DNA of 64,000 nucleotides from contig NC_090353.1 of assembly GCF_035084215.1 (NCBI RefSeq), positions 13,082,001 through 13,146,000 on the forward strand, read 5' to 3'. Below the pieces are notes generated by a model, which was given only the letters and a program-made list of their open reading frames with translations, did no database searches and was not told the origin of the DNA. The DNA is from Heptranchias perlo (lineage: Eukaryota). Positions 4,863-58,720 of this stretch are shown one piece after another. Both the position numbers and the translations under genes were made by a program. The stretch's first letter is position 1; each line of letters begins with the position of its first letter.

Positions 4863-5510
<648 letters not shown>

Positions 5511-5666
5511 TAAGTCCTGATGTACGGCAGACCTTTGGGGGAGGGGCTTCACAAAATGCATCTTCTCAGGGCAACTGTTTCATTTGTTTCTCTGGTTGAG
5601 GAAGAAATCAGGATAAGTAGCACATGTTCCGTGACTTACCAGGTGAAAGCTCTCTGCTGCTCCTTT

Positions 5667-44195: not shown

Positions 44196-44743
44196 GTGTG
44201 GGATTCCTTGAAAGTTACCGCATATAAAGTCAGAGAACAATGCCTGGTGATTACAGATAATCTTTTCAACTGCCCGTTATCAAGGCCATCAAATGAATTG
44301 AATAGTGTTCAGACAGAGAAACATTAGATACCAGACTACTGAATATACAAACGGCCAGAACCAAAGACAGAGAGGGAGAGAGAGAGAGAAACATCCGAAA
44401 GGAAGAGAAAGAGAGAGAATGACCAGTTGTATTAAAAACAGATAACTTTTTTTTCCGCTGGTGGGGTTACGTGTAGTGTGACATGAACCCAAGATCCCGG
44501 TTGAGGCCGTCCTCATGGGTGCAGAACTTGGCTATCAATTTCTGCTCGACGATTTTGCGTTGTCTTGTGTCTCGAAGGCCGCCTTGGAGAACGCTTACCC
44601 GAAGATCGGTGGCTGAATGTCCTTGACTGCTGAAGTGTTCCCGACTGGGAGGGAACCCTCCTGTCTCCGCTCCGGGGAAGTACTGGACGACGAAGGGTAC
44701 TCTGTTGGTTGCGTCCCGTGTTTGTCTTCTGAGGAGGTCTATG

Positions 44744-45337
44744 CACCATGTTCTCCGCAGCCTTCAACATGTCATCGATGACGACGAACACCTCGCTAAG
44801 GCCATCCCCACGCCTCCACTACACGCCTTCAAACAGCCACCCAACCTCAAACAGACCATCGTTTGCAGCAAATTACCCAGCTTTCAGGAGAACAGCGTCC
44901 ACGACACCACACAACCCTGCCACGGCAACCTCTGCAAGACATGCCAGATCATCGACACAGATACCACCATCACACGAGAGGACACCACCCACCAGGTACA
45001 TGGTTCATACTCCTGTGACTCGGCCAACGTTGTCTACCTCGTACGTTGCAGGAAAGGATGCCCCGGAGCATGGTACATCGGCGAGACCATGCAGACACTG
45101 CGACAACGGATGAACGGACACCGCGCAACAATCGCCAGACAGGAGGGTTCCCTCCCAGTCGGGGAACACTTCAGCAGTCAAGGACATTCAGCCACCGATC
45201 TTCGGGTAAGTGTTCTCCAAGGCGGCCTTCGAGACACAAGACAACGTAAAATCGTCGAGCAGAAATTGATAGCCAAGTTCCGCACCCATGAGGACGGCCT
45301 CAACCGGGATCTTGAGTTCATGTCGCACTACACGTAA
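44744..45337 (+). pseudogene. Penelope ORF C-terminus: RT linker plus GIY-YIG endonuclease
   Basis: AFKQPPNLKQTIV, PCHGNLCKTC, SCDSANVVYLVRCRKGCPGAWYIGET, RMNGHR, VGEHF and GLN are standard Penelope endonuclease motifs; the frame is uninterrupted. Confidence 0.9.
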
Positions 45338-46167: not shown

Positions 46168-46241
46168 TCACATTTCTTTTGTAGGTCGATAGTTCTCACC
46201 AGCTTTATTTCTATATTTCACATTGATGTACACGGGCTGCT
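46168..46241 (-). CDS. TMIGD2: Cytoplasmic exon of the TMIGD2-like receptor: (E)QPVYINVKYRNKAGENYRPTKEM*
   Basis: Strong acceptor tctttctctttttacag|AG, phase 1, in frame with the TM exon. Y-x-N-V-x-Y-R matches the human TMIGD2 tail motif (FYSNVLYR) as recalled. It is too short for the ORF track. An internal G|GTGAG donor at 46199 may be used instead of the stop. Confidence 0.7.
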
Positions 46242-47569
46242 CTGTAAAAAGAGAAAGATGCAGATTACTCTAGTTCTGACACAAAGAAATACAGTTGAGC
46301 TCTTTCCTGACGGACTGTACAAGATTGGTTTCTTTTTTAATTGAGAAGCTTCTGTGAAGGGTCAAGGTCCATCATGCACGACACAACCAAGGGTGAAAAG
46401 GGTGGGAGAGAAGATGAGATTAAACAGTGGTTATGTGACACCAAGTTTGGGTTTTAAAAGCCTGGAGATTGTAGGAAGAAGGAAAGACTGAAGAAGTTCC
46501 ACAGTTTTGGGAGAAAATGAGTAAGAGTAGGAGGTGATGCAATAAATCTTGAATTCAACACAATGGGAACATAGAGAGGAGGAAAACTGTGTAGGACAGG
46601 ATAGTTGGAGCTGAGGAGGGACAAGAGAAGGAAGTTCAGAGGAGCAATGACCATACTAGGATTGATAAAATGAAAAGAGAGGTTGGATTGTCTATCAGGC
46701 AAGAAGATTGTTCATGTATGCTGCCCAGGAATGTAAGAGAGTCATTAGTAGAGTTTTCCAGTTACAGCAGCCGTGGAAGAACTTGGGCTTTATAGAGGTT
46801 TAGAATTGTTGAGATCACCGAGTGTCAATTAGGTTTGCTTTTGCTGCTGATGAAAATTTCTCAAAAACCTGAATATCTTCCGTAACAAACATTTCCACAT
46901 TATGACAGACAGAGAAAGTGGGGAAAAACGAGTCATTTTTAAAATTAAGCTTTTGATAGAAAGCTTTTCTTGTGCTTATAATGTCCCTAAGTGCTTTACT
47001 ACCAATTTGAAGTGTATTCATTGTTGTTATGTAGGGAAACGTACATAACAGCCAATTTGTGCAATGTATGGTCCCACAAACTGCAAATGAGCTGAATGGT
47101 CTGATAATCTATTTTTGGTGGAGGGAGCAATGTAGGCCATGGGATCTTTTACATTCACCTGAACAGGCCAACAATTTAACATCTTATCTGAGAGACGGCA
47201 CCTCCAATGATGCAGCACTCCCTCACAACTTTTACATCATTTTACATAGGTTATTGTGTGAGTGTTTGCAAAGCCTTGCTTGTGGAAAGCACAGGTTGGA
47301 AAATTGAGGATATAATATTATAGCTGTTTCTCCAACCCATACTTATCAGTAGCACAGCCTCACAAAATTACCCCTTTGGTGTCCAGCTTGCATCTTAGAA
47401 GTTTCCTGAAGGCCTGCTCAAAAGACCAGTCCCCAAATCATATGGGTGGCAGCCATGGTTAGCAACAAGGCTGCACTGAGAACAGGGCATTGCGTTGGAA
47501 CTGCAGAAGCCACTTTATGGTATAAGAGGATTAACAATAATCAACAATTCTACTTTTTATGGTAATCAT

Positions 47570-49125
47570 AAAATCACAAAATAATTACAAATGAGGAAGA
47601 CCATATAGTGCATAATAGTTCATCTATCCAAGAGCACTCTGCAGTCCCCCATTGCAGCATCCAATTGTTTCCTAAATGCATCCAGGGTTTTTGCCTCTAC
47701 TCCTCTGCTCAGAAGTCCAAGTGTTGATCACTCTCTCCATGAAGAAGAAAGTCCTAAAGTTACCTTTCACTAGTTTGTACCTATGTCCCCTTTCTTACTC
47801 TTACAATTTAATTTAAATGAATATTCTGGATTTACCTTTTCCATACCATTTCCTATCTTATAAATCTCCGTAATATTTTTTTTTATTCATTCATTCATGG
47901 GATGTGGGCATCACTGGCAAGGCCAGCATTTATTGCCCATCCCTAATTGCCTTTGAGAAGGTGGTGATGGGCAATAAATGCTGGCCTTGCCAGTGACGCC
48001 CACATCCCATGAATGAATGAATGAATAAAAAAAATTCTTCTTTCTTGAACCACTGTAGTCCGTGTGATGATATCTCCTTTCTGTCAACCCTCAGATGTCT
48101 CCTTTCCAGGCTGAAAAGCCTGAGTCTCATAACTCAGACCCCTGACGCCAGAGATCAACCTTGCGGTTCTTCTCCGCACAGCCTCCAGCACTTGAATATC
48201 ACCCTTGTGTCTTGGTGACCAGAACAAGATATAATACTCAAGGTGCGGTCTGATTGTACAGTTTGGTCACAACTTTCTCTGGCTTATATTCAACTGATTT
48301 AGCTGTGTAGTTTAACATTCTATTGGCTTTGTTTTTACTGCTCTGCATTGTTTAGCATCGAATCTACTAAGACCTCTCGGTGTCTTTCCACTTCATTCTT
48401 AGCTTTTCAACAGTGTTCACAGAATATGTATGTTGCTTATTTTTCCATCCTACATACAGTACTTTACACTTGTCTTCCTCAGGTTTCATCTGCCTTTGTT
48501 CTGCCCACATGCTTATTTTGTTTAACTCACTTTGTAATTTCTGAGCTGCTTCATTCAATCACACTGCCCCTTCCAGTTTGGTATCATATGAAAATTTGAC
48601 CACTTTTTCATAGCGTTTCTGAGTCCAGGTTATTTATATAAATGAGAAACAACAGTGGTCTCAACACTGAGCCCTGGGGCACCCCACCAAGTATCCTCCA
48701 CCCGCCCCCTCCATACCCCAACATAACTCCTTTAACGCATATTCATTGCTTTCTATCCTTCAGTCTGTTATTCATCCATTCCCAGGGTTTTCTGGCAGGA
48801 TCTTCCCCTTCTGAATCCCTGTTGGCTACTGTTTACTAAGTTATTATTATACAGCTACTCCTCAATGATATCGCTGATAATTGAGTCCATTTTTTTCACA
48901 CAAAATGAAGGTGAGACGAATGGGTTTGTAGTTGCCTGAATCTAGTTTGACACTCTTTTTGAATATGGGCATCACATTGGCCTGTTTCCAATCTACTGCT
49001 ACCTCCCCACTTCCCCCAGTGACTCCCTTGCAATGATTATCAGTGCCTCACAAATCTCCTCCCTACTTTCTTTCAGCATTCTGGAATAAATACCATCTCT
49101 CCCCAGTGATTTGTTTATTTTGAGC
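47570..49125 (-). mobile_element. Old degenerate CR1 LINE RT fragment with a nested LINE-tail foldback at 47876-48070
   Basis: Minus-strand remnants of GVPQGSVL.PLLF (48645-48690) and LQSELNKISMWAEQRQMK..KCKVL. Confidence 0.7.
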
Positions 49126-49219
49126 CTTTTAGCCTTTCCAGTACTTCCATCTCATTTGCATCAAAGTCATACATTTACTTTGGTTATCTCTGTTTTAACC
49201 CAACCCAGGCCCTCCTTAC

Positions 49220-49324
49220 CTTTTTTAAATGTAATGAATCTTCGAGCCAAAAAGAAAGTGGTGACTGACACAACCAATGCGATAGACGACACACAGCTAA
49301 TTAGGATCCATTTTGTTGAGTCTA
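49220..49324 (-). CDS. TMIGD2: Transmembrane exon of the TMIGD2-like receptor: (V)DSTKWILISCVSSIALVVSVTTFFLARRFITFKK
   Basis: 105-nt phase-1/phase-1 exon (acceptor tttgttctgttcag|TA, donor AAAG|GTAAG). It encodes about 22 uncharged hydrophobic residues followed by an RR stop-transfer, in frame with the IgV exon. Confidence 0.75.
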
Positions 49325-49685
49325 CTGAACAGAACAAAGTAATCGGGTCACCATTCACTGTCACCATTTGCAATGCATTATTGGCTGTCCCTACAGACAA
49401 ATACATGACAATACAGAATTATAATGTACCCAGTTTAATCAAAACCAGTGAATCGTGTTCTTTTGCTAATTTTCTCCCCTCTTTTTCTCATGGCACTGAA
49501 TCATGCTAGGATACAGTTCCACAGGCACAAGCAATCCTTAAGGACTTCACCTGTGACCATTCTGCATGCGTGAGCCTGGACAGCAAGTAAATTCATTCAC
49601 TTGAATCTGTGAACTGCTTATAACTGGCAAGTCATCCCATCTTATGGAGAGGAGAATTACATAGAATTTACAGCACAGAAGTAGG

Positions 49686-51365
49686 CATGGATGTTAGGGA
49701 ACTTGGGGAAATAAATAGTGATGTCTTGAGGAGTGTACATATTACAGAGAGGGAGGTGCTGGAAGTCTTAACGCGCATCAAGGTAGATAAATCTCTGGGA
49801 CCTGATGAAATGTATCCCAGGACGTTATGGGTGGTTAGGGAGGAAATTGCGGGTCCCCTAGCAGAGATATTTCAATCATCGACAGCTACAGGTGAGGTGC
49901 CTGAAGATTGGAGGGTAGCAAATGTTGTGCCTTTGTTTAAGAAGGGCGGCAGGGAAAAGCCTGGGAACTACAGCCTGGGAGCCTGACATCTGTAGTGGGT
50001 AAGTTGTTAGAGGGTATTCTGAGAGACAGGATTTACAGGCATTTGGAGAGGCAGGGACTGATTAGGAACAGTCAGCATGGTTTTGTGAGAGGAAAATCAT
50101 GTCTCACGAATTTGATTGAGTTTTTTGAAGGGGTAACCAAGAAGATAGATGAGGGCTGTGCAGTAGATGTGGTCTACATGGACTTTAGCAAAGCCTTTGA
50201 CAAGGTACCGCATGGTAGGTTGTTACATAAGGTTAAATCTCACGGGATCCAAGGTGAGGTAGCCAATTGGATACAAAATTTGATTGACGACAGAAGATAG
50301 AGGATGGTTGTAGAGGGTTGTTTTTCAAACTGGAGGCCTGTGACCAGCGGTGTGCCTCAGGGATCGGTGCTGGGTCCGCTGTTATTTGTTATTTATATTA
50401 ATGATTTGGATGAGAATTTAGGAGGCATGGTTAGTAAGTTTGCAGATGACACCAAGATTGGTGGCATTGTGGACAGTGAAGAAGGTTATCTAGGATTGCA
50501 ACGGGATCTTGATAAATTGGGCCAGTGGGCCGATGAATGGCAGATGGAGTTTAATTCAGATAAATGTAAGGTGATGCATTTTGGTAGATCGAATCGGGCC
50601 AGGACCTACTCCGTTAATGGTAGGGCATTGGGGAGAGTTATAGAACAAAGAGATCTAGGAGTACAGGTTCATAGCTCCTTGAAAGTGGAGTCACAGGTGG
50701 ATAGGGTGGTGAAGAAGGCATTCAGCATGCTTGGTGTCATTGGTCAGAACATTGAATACAGGAGTTGGGCTGTCTTGTTGAAGTTGTACAAGACATTAGT
50801 AAGGCCACACTTGGAATACTGTGTACAGTTCTGGTAACCCTATTATAGAAAGGATATTATTAAACTAGAAAGAGTGCAGAAAAGATTTACTAGGATGCTA
50901 CTGGGACTTGATGGTTTGACTTATAGGGAGAGGTTGGATAGACTGAGACTTTTTTCCCTGGAGAGTAGGAGGTTTAGGGGTGATCTTATAGAAGTCTATA
51001 AAATAATGAGGGGCATAGATAAGGTAGATAGTCAAAATCTTTTCCCAAAGGTAGGGGAGTCTATAACGAGGGGGCATAGATTTAAGGTGAGAGGGGAGAG
51101 ATACAAAAGGGTCCAGAGGGGCAATCTTTTCACTCAAAGGGTGGTGAGTGTCTGGAACGAGCTGCCAGAGGCAGTAGTAGAGGCGGGTACAATTTTGTCT
51201 TTTAAAAAGCATTTGGACAGTTACATGGGTAAGATGGGTATAGAGGGATATGGGCCAAGTGCAGGCAATTGGGACTAGCTTAGTGGTATAAACTGGGCGA
51301 CATGGACATGTTGGGCCGAAGGGCCTGTTTCCATGTTGTAAACTTCTATGATTCTATGATTCTAT
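49686..51365 (+). mobile_element. Young 5'-truncated CR1 LINE (RT domain to 3' end), disrupted by a frameshift and two stops
   Basis: Contains DWRVANVVPLFKKG, QHGF..SCLTNL, DFSKAFDKV, GVPQGSVLGPLLF, FADD and RPHLEYCVQFW, and ends in (ATTCTATG)n. Confidence 0.95.
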
Positions 51366-53577
51366 TCGACAGGTCTATGCTGATGTCTTGCTCCACACGA
51401 GCCTCTTCCCACTTTACTTCATCTCACCCTATATGTATATATATAAAGCCACCACTGTTTACCACATTGTGAATATTTGTTACCACCTCAGCTCAAAATG
51501 TGCACTGTTCATTTGCGTTACTCCAACAGAACCTCTATGACCCAATCCATAAAACAGGATTCACAAAATATTCATTGGCCATTTTGCCACTCTACAGCTA
51601 TAGGAATTAAATATTCATTATTTATGCTGGCCACATGACAGTTTAAGTGCTTGAGAAGTGTAATGGCAGCATTATTGAAGCTGAGTCCTGATTGATCAGG
51701 TTCCTTCCCTTAATGCTACTGAAGCAAAATGTGCCTCTTTTTTTATATCAGCTTGAATCACATCCCCTCAACTCCACCTCAAACTTCTTTCCCTCAGTGA
51801 AATCCAAGTTTGCTTCTGCAAATCCCTCCTCACAACATTGCACTTCTGGAATCTTCCTTGTCCCCCTCCTAACATCGAAAGAAAGGAGTACATTTGTGAG
51901 ACTCCCCTCCCGATGTAGAGCCTCACTAGACCTGGGCCCACATGGCCCCAGGCTTCAACCTGAGGGCTTATCCAGCCCAGCCTCTGACCTGGATTTGTAT
52001 TCTAGCCCTTTCTCTGACCCACATTCCTGTCTAGCGAGGCTCCATGCCAGGAGAGAAGTCCACAAAATTACCTTTGAGAAACCTATTGCCATTCTTCATT
52101 TTTTAAGTTCTTAGTTGTGGCAAAAGTTTGACCGTAACCAATTGTGAGTCCTAAATATAGCAAAATTCTTTGAATTTGACATGCCATGTTTCTTGATACA
52201 ATTCTGGTTATCAAAACATACAGCTGTCGAGTTAGTGCTAAATTCTAAGGCAAAGAGCATTTATACAGTGAATAACTCTGTCCTTGTTGATAAAGGAATA
52301 TCTAAATGTTATCAGAATATGTAACTCTAACCTGATATGCACAATGAAAGTGATCCTATCTATTGTGATATGTCAGATTCCAGGGCTCTCAGGACCCAGG
52401 TAATCTTCCATAGCAATTTTCAGCTTCTCACATGAACTTATTCAGTAGCATTCCATTCTGTACATCACAGATCAGGTTTGAGGCTAAACAGGTCCAGGTC
52501 CAAGTCTGAGGCCAAGCAAGTCCAGGTCCAAGTCTGAGGCCATGTAGGCCCAGATCAGAGTTTGAATCTATGTAGGTCCATGTTGGAGTCTGGAAATGGT
52601 CTGGGCCAATACAGATCACAAGTTGGAGTTTGAGGCCCAGGTCAGAAGCTAAAGACTAGCACCTTCCGGGTCCATGACTCAGTTCTGCACATAGCAGCAA
52701 GGTTACTTGGAAGAGTGAGGGGGAACCTCAGGAAATGATTTTCCTTTGAATGAAATAACAAGTGCTTCTGGCAAAACCTTTCTTCTAAGATAAATGAGAG
52801 TGTGCATTAACTTGAGGGCTAACTGCAGCACTGGATCTATTCTAATACATCTATAGAGTTTATTAGCCGAAGACTGTGAATTACAGTTCCAATAAAATCC
52901 TGAGATAGTGTTAGCCCTGAGTGTGTCAATTACAGGCTTGTAACAGCATTTCTGAAATATTTAGAAGGTGCTCATCTGGAGTGAAATTAATGTGGACAGT
53001 CTCTCAGTCCAATTCCCATCAGACGAGTCCACAGCATTGAGCTACTCTTAAAAGCAGCAGACATTGGCACTAATAGGCTAATTTCACTCAGAGAGGCCAG
53101 AAGGACAGGCAGCGTGCGATGTGGAGATATACAGTTGCTGTAGGAGGTACACTTATGAAGGTCATGTTTAGATAAGCTGTCAGAATAATATCAGTGGGCT
53201 CAGCAGACAGATTCTTGAGTCGACGTGCAGAGATAGATAAGGGTTGGTATCAAGGGGGGAAGTAAGATTGAAATAATCTGAGCAGATATTGGACACTGAC
53301 TCTGAATGATAGACCACAACAAAATAGTTTGCACGGCCATCCCTCACTCTGTCTTGTTATGGTTTTTAGCACACCAGATCTTCATTATCTTGTTGGTGTT
53401 ACTGTGTGTAAAGTTGAAAAGTGTTTCACTTCCTCGTGTCATCCCTCACCGTAATGAGCACAAGTCTATGTGCATAACAGAAAAGCGGAGATAATGGGGT
53501 TGGAGCAGTGAGCAGAATTCAAAGCATAATTTGCAAAAACTAGAACCTTTGTCAGTTTTGAGCATTAGGCTATCTTC

Positions 53578-53762
53578 CATCTCTTTCTATCTATCCCTGT
53601 CTAATTATACATTTATCTATCTATCCATCCATGTATCTATCTATCTACCCCTGTCCATTTCTCTATCTATCTAACTCTGTCTATCAATCTATTTATTTAC
53701 CTACATCTTTGTCTGTCTATCTATCTATCTTCTTGTCCATCTTTCTGTCTGTTCATCTATCA
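53578..53762. repeat. Degenerate (TCTA/TCCA)n microsatellite
   Basis: Repeated tcta/tcca/tctg units. Confidence 0.8.
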
Positions 53763-54029
53763 AAAGGTTTGTTGAATGTAGAGTTCCTGTTTACTTTGTG
53801 TTCCGTCCAGCAGTGACAATCCGATTACAAAACCTGAAATGGAAAGCAGCCGTGACAGTTACCACTGTGCGCGCTCGTGAAGCACTGGAGTTGATTTTAA
53901 CCCTAAAGCAGGCTCAGACCTTGTTAATTTCAGGGTCCCATTACGACAGAATCCGCCACAGCGTTCCGCCAGGTGAAAGTAGGTCAGCAACTGTCGGGAA
54001 GGACAAAGAGGCCCAAAAGGTAAGTCAGA

Positions 54030-54597
54030 GTGACTCACCTCCTGACTTCCACCATCTACAAGGCACAAGTCAGGAGTGTGATGGAATACTCTCCACTTGC
54101 CTGGATGAGTGCAGCTCCAACAACACTCAAGAAGCTCGACACCATCCAGGACAAAACAGCCCGCTTGATTGGCACCCCATCCACCACCCTAAACATTCAC
54201 TCCCTTCACCACCGGCGCACAGTGGCTGCAGTGTGTACCATCCACAGGATGCACTGCAGCAACTCGCCCAAGGCTTCTTCGACAGCACCTCCCAAACCCG
54301 CGACCTCTACCACCTAGAAGGACAAGAGCAGCAGGCACATGGGAACAACACCACCTGCACGTTCTCCTCCAAGTCACACACCATCCCGACTTGGAAATAT
54401 ATCGCCGTTCCTTCATCGTCACTGGGTCAAAATCCTGGAACTCCCTTCCTAACAGCACTGTGGGAGAACCGTCACCACACGGACTGCAGCGGTTCAAGGA
54501 GGTGGCTCACCACCACCTTCTCAAGGGCAATTAGGGATGGGCAATAAATGCCGGCCTCGCCAGCGACGCCCACATCTCATGAACGAATAAAAAAAAA
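54030..54597 (+). mobile_element. Non-LTR retrotransposon 3' end (CR1-group, distinct family), inserted in a Harbinger-like MITE (~53888-54830)
   Basis: Translates IYKAQVRSVMEYSPLAWMSAAPTTLKKLDTIQDKTARLI...SLHHRRTVAA and ends GAATAAAAAAAAA. Confidence 0.8.
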
Positions 54598-55489
54598 GGA
54601 GGACCAGGACTTTCCCCACAAGGAATGTCATGGTTTCCCCTGCCCTGGATCCCCTCCCCCCACCACGTTCCCTCCCATGAGACCCTCCCTGTCACTTATC
54701 TGGGCTGCCTGACCTTCGGTAGCTGACAGCCACTCCGCCCGGGAAGTGGACAGGCAGCATTTAAACGGTGGGGAGTGCAACATTTTTCTACTCTTGCCGC
54801 CCAGACTCACCCAGTGGATAAAATCAGCAAAAGCCTCCTGCTGCCGTTGGTGGGAATTAACTCATTGGAGCGGAATCCCATCGGAAACCCGCTTTGAGTT
54901 TAAAACTCCCCCCCCGGTAGTATCTTTGAAACAAGAGCCACCAATTAGGCATCCCAACCTGACAGGAATGAAAGAGCAGAGGCAATATACAAGTGTCAAA
55001 CGAGCAGCACCATGACCAACCTAAGAAAGCAGCAATTATTCCGTCCTATTTTCTGCTGCTCCAACACATTGCTCAGGCGTGTCAGTCACTGACCAGTGCG
55101 CAACGACCACGCTGCAGGGCCCACCCTACCCATGAGTAACGTTGTGGAAGTCCAGTGGGCAATGACAGCAGCATGCTTATACAGCCGTACAACTTGTCAC
55201 TCTGTGCTGTTGTGCTACCATAGCACATAATCCAATATAGATCTTAACCACTGCTCCCTTTTTCTCGGACAGCAGGTGCTGGTTGTGGAGGGCGGCTGCA
55301 CCAGAGCCACTGGGAGGGGAGGAAATATGGGCTGGTGCTTGGGGTGGGGGAATCCCATGGTACAGGGCCGGAGAGGTGGTCTTCATCCCTAGGGTCTACC
55401 CACCTTTTTCCACCACATTCCCAGGCCACGGGAGCCTTTTCCTCTTTGCAAGATTTTCCATGCTTCCTCCCTCCCCCTCTGCTATTCTA

Positions 55490-55815
55490 CATGTAACCAC
55501 TTACACCTCCTCAGGACCTATCTTTTGTTTCTTTACTTGCCCCATTAGCACTTCCTTTTGCCTTGCACTATCATCCCTTTTGTCACTTAATCACTCCTGC
55601 TCCCCATCTTATCATAGACCTTTCCCCTTTGTTCTTTCCTCCCACCCCACTCCCACTTTTCCCTGGCTTGCTTAAAAACTGTTAAATCTCTAACATCTTC
55701 TAGTTCTGATGAAAGGTCATCGACTGAAAACGTTAACTCTGTTTCTCTCTGACCTGCTGAGCGTTTCCAGCATTTTCTGTTTTAATTTCAGATTTACGCA
55801 GTATTTTGCTTTTAC
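55490..55815 (+). mobile_element. Degenerate Penelope-like pseudo-LTR of a second family, with a hammerhead-like remnant at 55702-55738
   Basis: AGTT-CTGATGA-AAGGTCATCGACT-GAAA-ACGTT-AACT followed by GACCTGCTGAG..TTTCCAGCATTTTCTG. Reverse fragments lie at ~8455-8565 and ~60133-60195. Confidence 0.55.
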
Positions 55816-55889
55816 ACATAATCCAATATTAGTTTCATGTGTTATGATGGGTGGACAAGAAGCATTTGTGACCAAATCCCACAGCAAGT

Positions 55890-56294
55890 TTTTTAAAAAA
55901 TTTGTTCATGGGATGTGGGCGTCGCTGACAAGGCCAGCATTTATTGCCCATTCCTAATTGCCCTTGAGAAGGTGGTGGTGAGCCTCCTTCTTGAACCACT
56001 GCAGTCCTTGTGGTGAAGGTTCTCCCACAGTGCTGTTCCCTAGGAGTTCCAGGATTTTGACCCAGTGACGATGAAGGAACGGCGTTATATTTCCAAGTCG
56101 AGATGGTGTGTGACTTGGAGGGGAACGTGCAGGTGGTGTTGTTCCCATGTGCCTGTTGTCCTTGTCCTTCTAGGTGATAGAGGTCGCGGGTTTGGAAGGT
56201 GCTGTCGAAGAAGCCTTGGCGAGTTGCTGCAGTGCATCCTGTGGATGGTACACACTGCAGCCACTGTGCGCCGGTGGTGAAGGGAGTGAATGTT
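55890..56294 (-). mobile_element. Non-LTR retrotransposon 3' end, same family as 54030-54597, inverted
   Basis: High-identity reverse complement of ~54192-54590. Confidence 0.85.
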
Positions 56295-57899
56295 TTATTA
56301 ATGGTACAGGTAAATTTATGCGTTCATTAAGGTGAGGAACGTCATTGCTGGGGAGTGCAACATTTTTCTACTCTTGCCGCCCAGTCTCACCATCAAGTAT
56401 TCCCGGGTCAGTTATCACATGGCCAGATGCAAAGGCTGTGTCTATCATACTGCAACAATGTGCGTTAACCTAACCTAAGAATACCAGCCCCTGCTGCACC
56501 ATTCTGACATTTCCACTTCCCTCACAGGGAAACGTAGGGCTGAACTTGCTTCCTGAATTCTTTTTAGTGCATTGGTTAAGATGTTTGCTTTTATGTCCTG
56601 TGCATGATTTTAGCAAAAGCCTTTTATTTTTTAGCTAAAATAGCTCATATCAGATTTGTAGCTGTCGATTTGCTCAACCATTTTTATGCCCTTGACTCCA
56701 ACGAAACATTTACTGTTTCACACCCCAGTCGTTTCCCTTGGTATTGTCCCAATTTTTGCTCCCTCACGTCCAAGCAGTGCAGACTCGAGCATACCTAGCA
56801 CATAATTAGTATGGCCATCCTTCATCAGATCTGGCTGGACCATATCAAATGCTATTGAGCCTGACTCTCCTCTGTCAAAACTGCCCACTACTCCAGGATC
56901 CTCCCTAGTTCTCCCACTTTAGGCAGTCCCCCCGATGCTAGTGAGGAAAACTTTGCAGGGACGACTGGGTTGAGATTGCCTGAGTCTTATCCTGATACGA
57001 TGCTTGGATCATTTGTCGTTTGACATTTTCCCTATTTTTGAAGTTGGTAGCAATTGTTTACAACCAAATCACTTGCTCGGACACTTCAGAGGGCATTAAG
57101 AGTTAACCATGTCGTGTGGGACTGGAGTTACATATAGGCCAGACCAGGTAGAAGTGGCAGGCTCAATGCCCTGAGGAACATTAGTGAACCAGTTGGGAAG
57201 GTGTCACATACCAGTTGTATTGTCATTTGAAGATGTATTTTCTTTCAAGACAACTAGAAAAACAGATAAATGTGTTATTAAATTCATTATATTAAGTAAA
57301 CTTAGAGCATTCAAACTAGACTGCAAGCTTTCATGTTTTTTTCAGGTGCCAAGTTATCAGATTTATTGAATTCAATTTTACAACTTGCTCTGGTGGGATT
57401 TGAACTCATGACCTCTGGGTACTATAACCACTACCATACTTGTAAAATTAGCCTTTATGTTCAATCCTTGCCTACATCTTAGCTTCAAAAAATAAAAATG
57501 GTATATATTCGGTATACTTTGTATCTGAGTCCAGCAGGAGTCACTGGGCAGCAATCAGGAGCAGGAGCTAAGGCTGATTTCCACCCCGATTCCTAGCCAA
57601 GAGGCCTACCAAGGCTAATTGTAGCACCAAAATGCCATCAAACCTTGGGTCTGTATTGCTAAGTACTATACTGGGTGCTGCAGGCATCCACTGAGCCAGA
57701 AGAGTTCAAAATAAAGAAGAAAAACGACAGCTTTGTAACTGTAATCAGGAAGATGTCACATACCAGTTGTGCTGTCATTTGAAGATGCACTTTCTTTGAA
57801 GTCAACTAGAATAATAAATAAATGTGTTATTAAATTCATTATATTAATTAAATTTAGAGCATTCAAACTAGACTGTTTTCCAATTTTAGATTTTTCAGT

Positions 57900-58318
57900 A
57901 AGGAAGTACTTTGAACAAAGACTGCTACTTAAGTGAGAATAGTGGCCCTGTGGAATAGGTTGACAGCTTGTGCGGTGAATGCTGAGTCACTGTATTCCAT
58001 CAAGAGAGAGCTGGACCTGTTTCTGGCTGGGGCAGTGATCACCTCGTATAACAGGTAGGTATCCTGTGAGATAAATCAGGGTCAATTTGATCTGCTGAAC
58101 TAGTTTCAATCACCTAATGAGGTCGGAGAGAAATTTTCCAGATTTTTTCCCCTAATTGGCCTAGGTTTTTATCTGGTTTTTCGCCTCTCCCAAGAGATTA
58201 CGTGGTGGATAGGGAATGTCTGTACCGTGATGCATAAGGCATCATAACTATATTGGACAGGCTAGATGGACCAGTGGCTCTTTTCCTGTCCCGTCATTTT
58301 CGTATGTTCGTATGTATG
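57900..58318 (+). mobile_element. Old CR1-type 3' fragment
   Basis: Tail GGCTAGATGGACC...TTTTCCTGTCCC..TTTTCGTATGTTCGTATG; a related fragment lies at 60725-60880. Confidence 0.5.
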
Positions 58319-58363
58319 TAAGTTAGTTGAAATTTAACAGCCGAAACATTCATTAATACGTAC

Positions 58364-58720
58364 CTTGGATCTGCAGATTAGTCCCATTCCCAGACTTTCT
58401 GTACACTGGTGGAGGAATCTCAATTAATACTTCACACAAGTACATCCCAGTGTCATTCAGGTTTATGCGGGAGATAGTCAGAGAGCTAACTGCATCATTG
58501 AAGAAATGTTTTGTCCTTTCGGTGTAATTCGGGTAAGCCTTCGTTGTGTTTCCTTTGAAGGTGAGCACCATCATCTTTCTCTCTGGTAAGATTTTACTCC
58601 ATTCTATTCGCAGCTCCGCATTTGTGCTATTAATCCGACAAGTCATTGTTACCGAGTCTCCTTCCCTTGCAGATAGGTGAAGTGGGGATTGTGTAACCGT
58701 CAGGATTTCACCGTTCCCAG
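58364..58720 (-). CDS. TMIGD2: IgV (VJ-type) ectodomain exon of a TMIGD2/CD28H-like receptor
   Basis: 357-nt phase-1/phase-1 exon (acceptor ttttgtccttacag|CT, donor CAAG|GTACGT). It shows V-set hallmarks VTQSP, VTMTC, IEW, SLTI, DTGMYLC and GNGTNLQI, an EIP motif after the second Cys as in human TMIGD2, and 5 N-glycosylation sequons. Confidence 0.8.

Follow-up and report, generated by a model that had tools for sequence, protein, structure and literature searches.

The CD28 family of jawed vertebrates comprises nine members according to Quiniou et al. 2024 (PMC11599192), where fsd1 and stap2 are given as the marker genes of cd28h and YxNx is read as a signalling motif. Human CD28H (TMIGD2) binds the first immunoglobulin variable-type domain (IgV1) of HHLA2 and signals via Tyr192 and AKT (PMC10173190), and its ligand and activating role are also described in a review (PMC3817299). 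Here we describe a gene of the shark Heptranchias perlo, whose lineage lies outside the five chondrichthyans covered in PMC11599192. The gene is on the minus strand of a 64,000-nucleotide (nt) stretch (G000:C32:13082001-13146000, referred to as the window) within a 3.25-Gb genome, where an exon of one paralog matches a protein labelled Heptranchias perlo at 100% identity over 87 amino acids. We assign a probability of roughly 0.8 to the reading that it is the single-IgV shark ortholog of CD28H/TMIGD2, likely co-stimulating T or natural killer (NK)-type cells via HHLA2 (B7-H7) and likely signalling via a YxN tyrosine. An earlier reading of the DNA, made by a model from the letters (the sequence-only reading), had proposed the same identity, which is upheld by the match to the epaulette-shark CD28H, the clade, the gene neighbourhood and the YxN tail described below.

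The V exon (58364..58720, minus strand; 357 nt, phase 1-1) encodes a V-set domain (PF07686, E 9.6e-15) with five N-glycosylation sequons and a GxG in the G strand, and contigs of three runs (X1, X2 and X3) cover its full length. Past the second Cys the FG loop, which resembles complementarity-determining region 3 (CDR3), reads CEVLIEIPPPVY, confirming the loop that had been noticed before. Its EIPPP (58407..58421, minus strand) occurs once only across the six frames of the window, and translation and alignments place the three prolines at +7 to +9 from the second Cys. The domain is 64% identical over 118 amino acids (aa) to XP_060702444 (P0166), the epaulette-shark CD28H of PMC11599192. When P0166 was compared with 15 V exons of the genome, the window gene was the best match with 156 bits and the next one reached 80.5. 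The domain's three matches among longer proteins are shark proteins with 66-76% identity, and the YxN tail is found in all eight shark homologs.

The gene forms a clade with P0166 at a Shimodaira-Hasegawa approximate likelihood ratio (SH-aLRT) of 98 in a tree that omits six rows of our careful tree. Support for the shark ortholog clade in the latter is 88/97, and two paralogs on contig C1 join this clade at 95/92. The careful tree consists of shark sequences, one ray protein and two unnamed proteins, and the second tree of shark sequences. As regards the IgV phylogeny suggested by the sequence-only reading, the domain groups with published CD28H and apart from a CD28/CTLA4-type cluster on contig C7, in trees that hold no named NCR3 or tetrapod row. 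Neither the V domain nor the ortholog profile, when searched against the PDB, had TMIGD2 among its best 60 matches. A profile search of 1.84 billion representatives returned no tetrapod TMIGD2 or CD28 in the best 150, all of which are at least 348 aa long with several Ig-like stretches, two of them with a similar loop.

The neighbourhood on contig C32 has the order Saf4_Yju2 (12.89 Mb), an SH2-domain exon, this gene, an FSD1-like gene, a STAP-like gene and a RAMA match (13.316 Mb) that is the sole one in the genome. The SH2 exon (window 5391-5513, plus strand; PF00017, E 6.4e-13) probably belongs to the adaptor gene SHD, the RAMA gene is presumably MPND, and the plus-strand gene with coiled-coil, fn3-like (E 0.88) and SPRY-like (E 0.023) exons, located between this gene and the STAP-like one, we take to be FSD1. 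The order in human is YJU2-SHD-TMIGD2-FSD1-STAP2-MPND. The minus-strand STAP-like exon had STAP2 as its best PDB match (E 8.5e-10), followed by STAP1 (4e-9). A COS-domain search missed the FSD1-like gene, its two matches being elsewhere. Taken together, the gene displays the single IgV-transmembrane-cytoplasmic layout, the EIP(PP) CDR3 loop, the Y-x-N-[VIMT] tail and the fsd1/stap2 synteny of CD28H, and both the tree and the reciprocal best match place it there.

Several points weigh against this reading. The support of the ortholog clade in the careful tree (88/97) is under the star threshold, and the trees contain no tetrapod TMIGD2, the link to the human gene resting on the assignment made in PMC11599192 and on gene order. 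The databases name the orthologs 'CTLA4-like' or 'uncharacterized', the identity of FSD1 is weakly supported by the tools used and the margin between STAP2 and STAP1 is narrow. Our literature search turned up neither binding nor signalling data on a shark CD28H, and a shallow search of the genome (PF22705, 19 matches, four loci opened, two of them compared with the PDB) did not identify HHLA2.

The gene is spliced from six exons, encoding the leader, the V domain, two stalk segments, the transmembrane (TM) segment and the cytoplasmic tail. The sequence-only reading had described three phase-1 exons on the minus strand; these exons and their boundaries are real, since the V, TM and tail exons show AG/GT ends, phase-1 boundaries and an open joined reading frame, and the model was incomplete in that it missed the leader, both stalk exons and a second TM acceptor. 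Splice evidence comes from contigs of four runs (X1-X4) of a single sample of a single study, whose RNA status is the tool's guess, no run being recorded as RNA. The two junctions proposed before, 58364>49324 (V to TM) and 49220>46241 (TM to tail), are present together in one spliced contig of 758 nt (X3), which represents one of four forms, and the second junction was seen in X1, X2 and X3. The leader (signal-peptide) exon is at G000:C32:13158703-13158655 on the minus strand, 12.7 kb past the window end. It was located by a scan with the leaders of shark homologs (score 53, next 25), and by-eye comparison indicates that loose contig ends at the 5' edge of the V exon continue into it.

Both stalk exons are in phase 1 and lie between the V and TM exons. 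Stalk exon 1 (57764..57805, minus strand; 42 nt, 14 codons) was located via the stalks of shark homologs, is rich in Ser, Thr and Asn and carries one sequon; stalk exon 2 (57212..57253, minus strand; 42 nt) is its tandem duplicate, with two sequons, and is spliced in X1 and X2. The duplication extends over 128 nt at 90.6% identity including flanks, and six of the 42 exon nt differ. The joints 58364>57805 and 57764>57253, with intron ends, are present in X1 and X2 contigs. A contig of 606 nt (X1) joins leader, V, stalk 1, stalk 2 and TM, reaching 29 nt into the TM exon, and the same joints were recovered piecewise in X2. Splicing into the TM exon (49220..49324, minus strand; 105 nt) uses either of two tandem acceptors, 49324 or 49321. 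The latter serves the forms that contain a stalk as well as one V-to-TM form, seen in a 196-nt contig of X4. Thus there are four splice forms, with both stalks, with stalk 1 alone (weak evidence, one 53-nt contig in X2), or with neither stalk and either TM acceptor. All four are open. They encode 221, 207, 194 and 193 aa, respectively; the spacer from V domain to TM helix measures 31, 17, 4 and 3 residues, and the sequons number 8, 6, 5 and 5. No form with stalk 2 alone was present among the contig rows listed, from which absence cannot be established. The use of the tandem acceptor may be conserved: P0002 and P0163, two isoforms of the horn shark, show a one-residue difference at the junction matching 49324/49321.

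The last exon encodes a short cytoplasmic tail (46168..46241, minus strand), the stop codon ending at 46168 and the spliced contigs extending to 45908. It contains YINV (46219..46230, minus strand), a YxN motif of the Grb2/GADS type, to which YVNV corresponds in published shark CD28H and YSNV in human TMIGD2. The spliced contigs match the genome without gaps across the region of the stop, and for this reason the shorter tail of this gene is real. Another frame of the tail exon (window 46180-46085, minus strand) continues with the C-terminal stretch known from catshark, horn shark and skate CD28H. The shark orthologs diverge past the YxNVxYRNK block, which suggests that constraint on the tail is limited to this block. 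Charged residues are absent from the TM helix, the TM exon lacks Tyr and hence a YxxxxT motif, and the stalk has no cysteine; because of these three absences the protein is probably not a covalent dimer.

The alignment bears out that the three prolines stand in the same register past the second Cys as in MYPPPY and FDPPPF of CD28, CTLA4 and ICOS. Across the nine rows of the alignment the E, the I, the outer two prolines, the V and the R of the loop are invariant. The middle proline varies, being Gly in three of the eight shark orthologs; PPP is kept in the other five, and the Tyr that follows in four. EIPPP is found in two of the 17 CD28H rows in the table of PMC11599192 (skate and epaulette shark), and elephant shark has EIPS. 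The text of the same paper assigns EIPPP to reptile CD28H; the turtle, alligator and chicken CD28H rows of its table are without it, and the reptile PPP is in CD28X rows.

PPP is not exclusive to this gene. We compared a selection of 14 other V exons of the genome, 11 from one search and three of the C7 cluster, and found PPP at the same position in nine and EIPPP in four. A C1-set exon lies downstream of two of these four, and also of a third gene on contig C11 with FIPPP; splicing of V and C1-set exons together was demonstrated for the FIPPP gene alone, via the annotated protein P0010. Judged from these downstream exons, the motif is carried by V-C1 receptors too, which the single-V definition excludes from the family. 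A V-C1 receptor cluster is located at C11:54.15-54.37 Mb (L004, L005, L009, L035, L038 and L041); the loops read EIPPP or FIPPP, and the tail bears a tyrosine (P0010, which NCBI calls SIRP-like). The V sequences of these receptors are closer to CD28H (67-68 bits) than is the C7 cluster.

Since PPP is widespread among V exons, a proline-rich loop is probably ancestral, and this part of the sequence-only reading stands; most shark orthologs also keep PPP together with GxG. That reading had gone further and proposed that PPP may reflect a link between CD28H and CD28/CTLA4/ICOS; with PPP in nine of the 14 other V exons, the case for such a special link, or for PPP as a predictor of B7-1/2 binding, looks weak. 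The ancestral or 'primordial' idea for the EIPPP of shark CD28H is not new, having been published in 2024 (PMC11599192). Because it is common to many shark V receptors, V-C1 types included, PPP in this loop should not be taken to indicate CD28 membership or binding to B7-1/2. We infer that constraint within the loop falls on E-I-P-x-P-V, a turn common to many non-rearranging shark V domains, and not on a docking site for B7-1/2 of the MYPPPY type. An AlphaFold2 model built from the nine-row alignment (mean predicted local distance difference test score 41.3) was too poor to show the cis-trans-cis conformation of the prolines.

An unlikely alternative, suggested by the sequence-only reading, is a CD28H that in addition binds CD80/86-like ligands through its PPP loop, in the manner of CD28 and CTLA4. 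It draws on the shared register, on the GxG strand that follows PPP as in CTLA4, on the retention of PPP in five of the eight shark orthologs and on the contacts of P120 and P121 of CD28 with CD86 (bioRxiv 10.64898/2026.03.30.715283). However, the FG-region contacts of CD28 with CD86 given there are E115, M117, Y118, P120, P121 and Y122, and four of these six are replaced: L, E, I and V stand here in place of E115, M117, Y118 and Y122, leaving only the two prolines. In ICOS, alanine at either of the flanking Phe residues nearly abolishes binding (PMC7545189), and the middle proline itself is dispensed with in the three orthologs with Gly and in the EIPS of elephant shark. The genome also has a three-gene CD28/CTLA4-type cluster of its own (C7:95.28-95.55 Mb, L051-L053), which keeps the B7-type motif in loops of the form E-x-M-H/Y-PP, PPI replacing PPP in the third gene. 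Its first V domain matches structures of CTLA4 and CD28 with E values of 1e-13 to 4e-18, whereas the best 60 of the 3401 PDB matches of the window domain include no CD28, CTLA4 or ICOS chain. The window domain scores 27-37 bits against the C7 cluster and 67-77 bits against the four EIPPP paralogs. Slightly less credible still is a dual-ligand receptor for CD80/86-like proteins and HHLA2 that would keep a state from before the split of the B7 pathways, its duplicated, alternatively spliced stalk switching height between ligands of different length. CD80 and CD86 are reported to be poorly conserved across jawed vertebrates (PMC13262535), and like HHLA2 they were not identified among the opened PF22705 loci.

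The gene could also be a CD28H by descent that acts mainly in homophilic adhesion, the IGPR-1 role, or that has a shark-specific ligand. Human TMIGD2 also takes part in cell-cell adhesion and angiogenesis (PMC10173190), and a glycosylated stalk of variable length could adjust the distance at which adhesion occurs, but the conservation of YxN from shark to human fits a conserved signalling role, and the failure to identify HHLA2 comes from a shallow search that establishes no absence; we regard this reading as quite improbable. Less probable again, and the least of those considered, is another family member (CD28HL1, CD28HL2, CD28X or a CD28/CTLA4 co-ortholog) or an NKp30-like receptor. EIPPP is shared with the CD28HL1 and CD28HL2 rows of PMC11599192 and with the two contig-C1 paralogs at 37-38% identity, Atlas gives ICOS and NCR3-like clusters at 0.96 for one homolog, and NCBI calls several orthologs CTLA4-like. 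Yet by loop motif these members have separate loci, at C1:27.07 Mb (CD28HL2-like), at C6:6.46 Mb (CD28X-like, with a YEDM tail in P0009) and in the C7 trio, and the gene described here has a YxN tail, not YESF or YEDM, the cd28h block as neighbours and a published CD28H as reciprocal best match. A TM segment with a charged residue and a cytoplasmic part free of tyrosine motifs characterize NCR3/NKp30; the uncharged TM helix of the gene described here speaks against a receptor of this kind.

For a CD28H ortholog, a mode of action can be proposed by analogy with the human receptor. The IgV domain would most likely bind HHLA2 on presenting cells, phosphorylated YINV would recruit Grb2/GADS-type adaptors, as the reading of YxNx in PMC11599192 also implies, and a positive signal would be added to those of antigen or NK receptors. 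More speculatively, splicing of the stalk would set the distance of the V domain from the membrane and its glycan load. Close contacts have a depth of about 15 nm (PMC11969063), so a receptor height set by the stalk could matter there.

We also noted other loci. Loop motifs alone suggest likely CD28HL1, CD28HL2, CD28X and PD-1 at L002 (C1:180.26 Mb), L003 (C1:27.07 Mb), L006 (C6:6.46 Mb) and L008 (C13:22.72 Mb), respectively. A tail search of the contig-C1 paralogs gave a TM exon and a YENS candidate at C1:27 Mb, and nothing convincing within 30 kb of the C1:180 Mb paralog. Non-rearranging V exons with PLP, PPP or PRP loops are found at L007 and L012 (C38:24.39-24.42 Mb), L010 (C27:44.90 Mb) and L058:1847-2236 (C11:48.14 Mb); by eye, none matches a row in the tables of PMC11599192. 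A search with the ICOS V-set_2 model matched two C11 exons and nothing else. The two PF22705 loci compared with the PDB both had CD276 as best match, one of them also matching VTCN1. At C35:7.12 Mb (L063-L064) there is a B7-like gene, best PDB match CD276, with four Ig domains mostly in a single 495-aa open frame; so few introns between domains are unusual. In the window, high-copy repeat remnants with very high contig depth occupy 44627-45337, 49624-51353 and 53675-56323. Their frames resemble long interspersed nuclear element (LINE)- and Penelope-type elements.

What is new here is the duplicated, variably spliced stalk exon, the family, the motif and the ancestral idea being already known; our literature search found no publication on isoforms, stalk or alternative splicing of CD28H. 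The gene adds one more shark lineage to the published family, and its model is corrected. With receptor heights graded naturally from 3 to 31 residues, the doubled stalk lends itself to relating spacing to co-stimulation. Cross-binding of CD80/86-like ligands, if true, would tell how a shared pathway gave rise to the separate ones between B7 and CD28 proteins.

Compared with CD28, CTLA4, ICOS and the shark C7 cluster, the gene has the same PPP register and a single IgV domain, with a YxN tail as in CD28. It differs from CD28, CTLA4 and ICOS in having no E(+3), M(+5), Y(+6), aromatic residue after PPP, YxxxxT in the TM segment or stalk cysteine, and from the C7 cluster in lying on another chromosome and in a separate clade. 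The nearest paralogs, which by loop motif are likely CD28HL1 and CD28HL2, likewise have an EIP(P)P loop (37-38% identity, grouped at 95/92), but they are on contig C1, and the published tails (YESF in HL1, a distal YxN in HL2) and marker genes are different (PMC11599192). With human TMIGD2 (CD28H, IGPR-1) the gene shares the EIP loop, the YxNV tail, the single IgV domain and the lack of a TM dimerization motif. The tail of human TMIGD2 has a proline-rich region, which is absent here. The human loop is EIPEL in the table of PMC11599192, bearing out the earlier statement that it has EIP without PPP. The closest match is to chondrichthyan CD28H (epaulette shark XP_060702444 and little skate XP_055514805), with the same order of leader, IgV, stalk, TM and tail, EIPPPV followed by GNG, a YxNV tail and the cd28h neighbourhood. 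The tail of the H. perlo gene ends earlier than in catshark, horn shark and skate CD28H. At the protein level, all 13 shark homologs compared have a single stalk of 14-15 aa and none a doubled one, whereas the H. perlo gene has two stalk exons and four splice forms.

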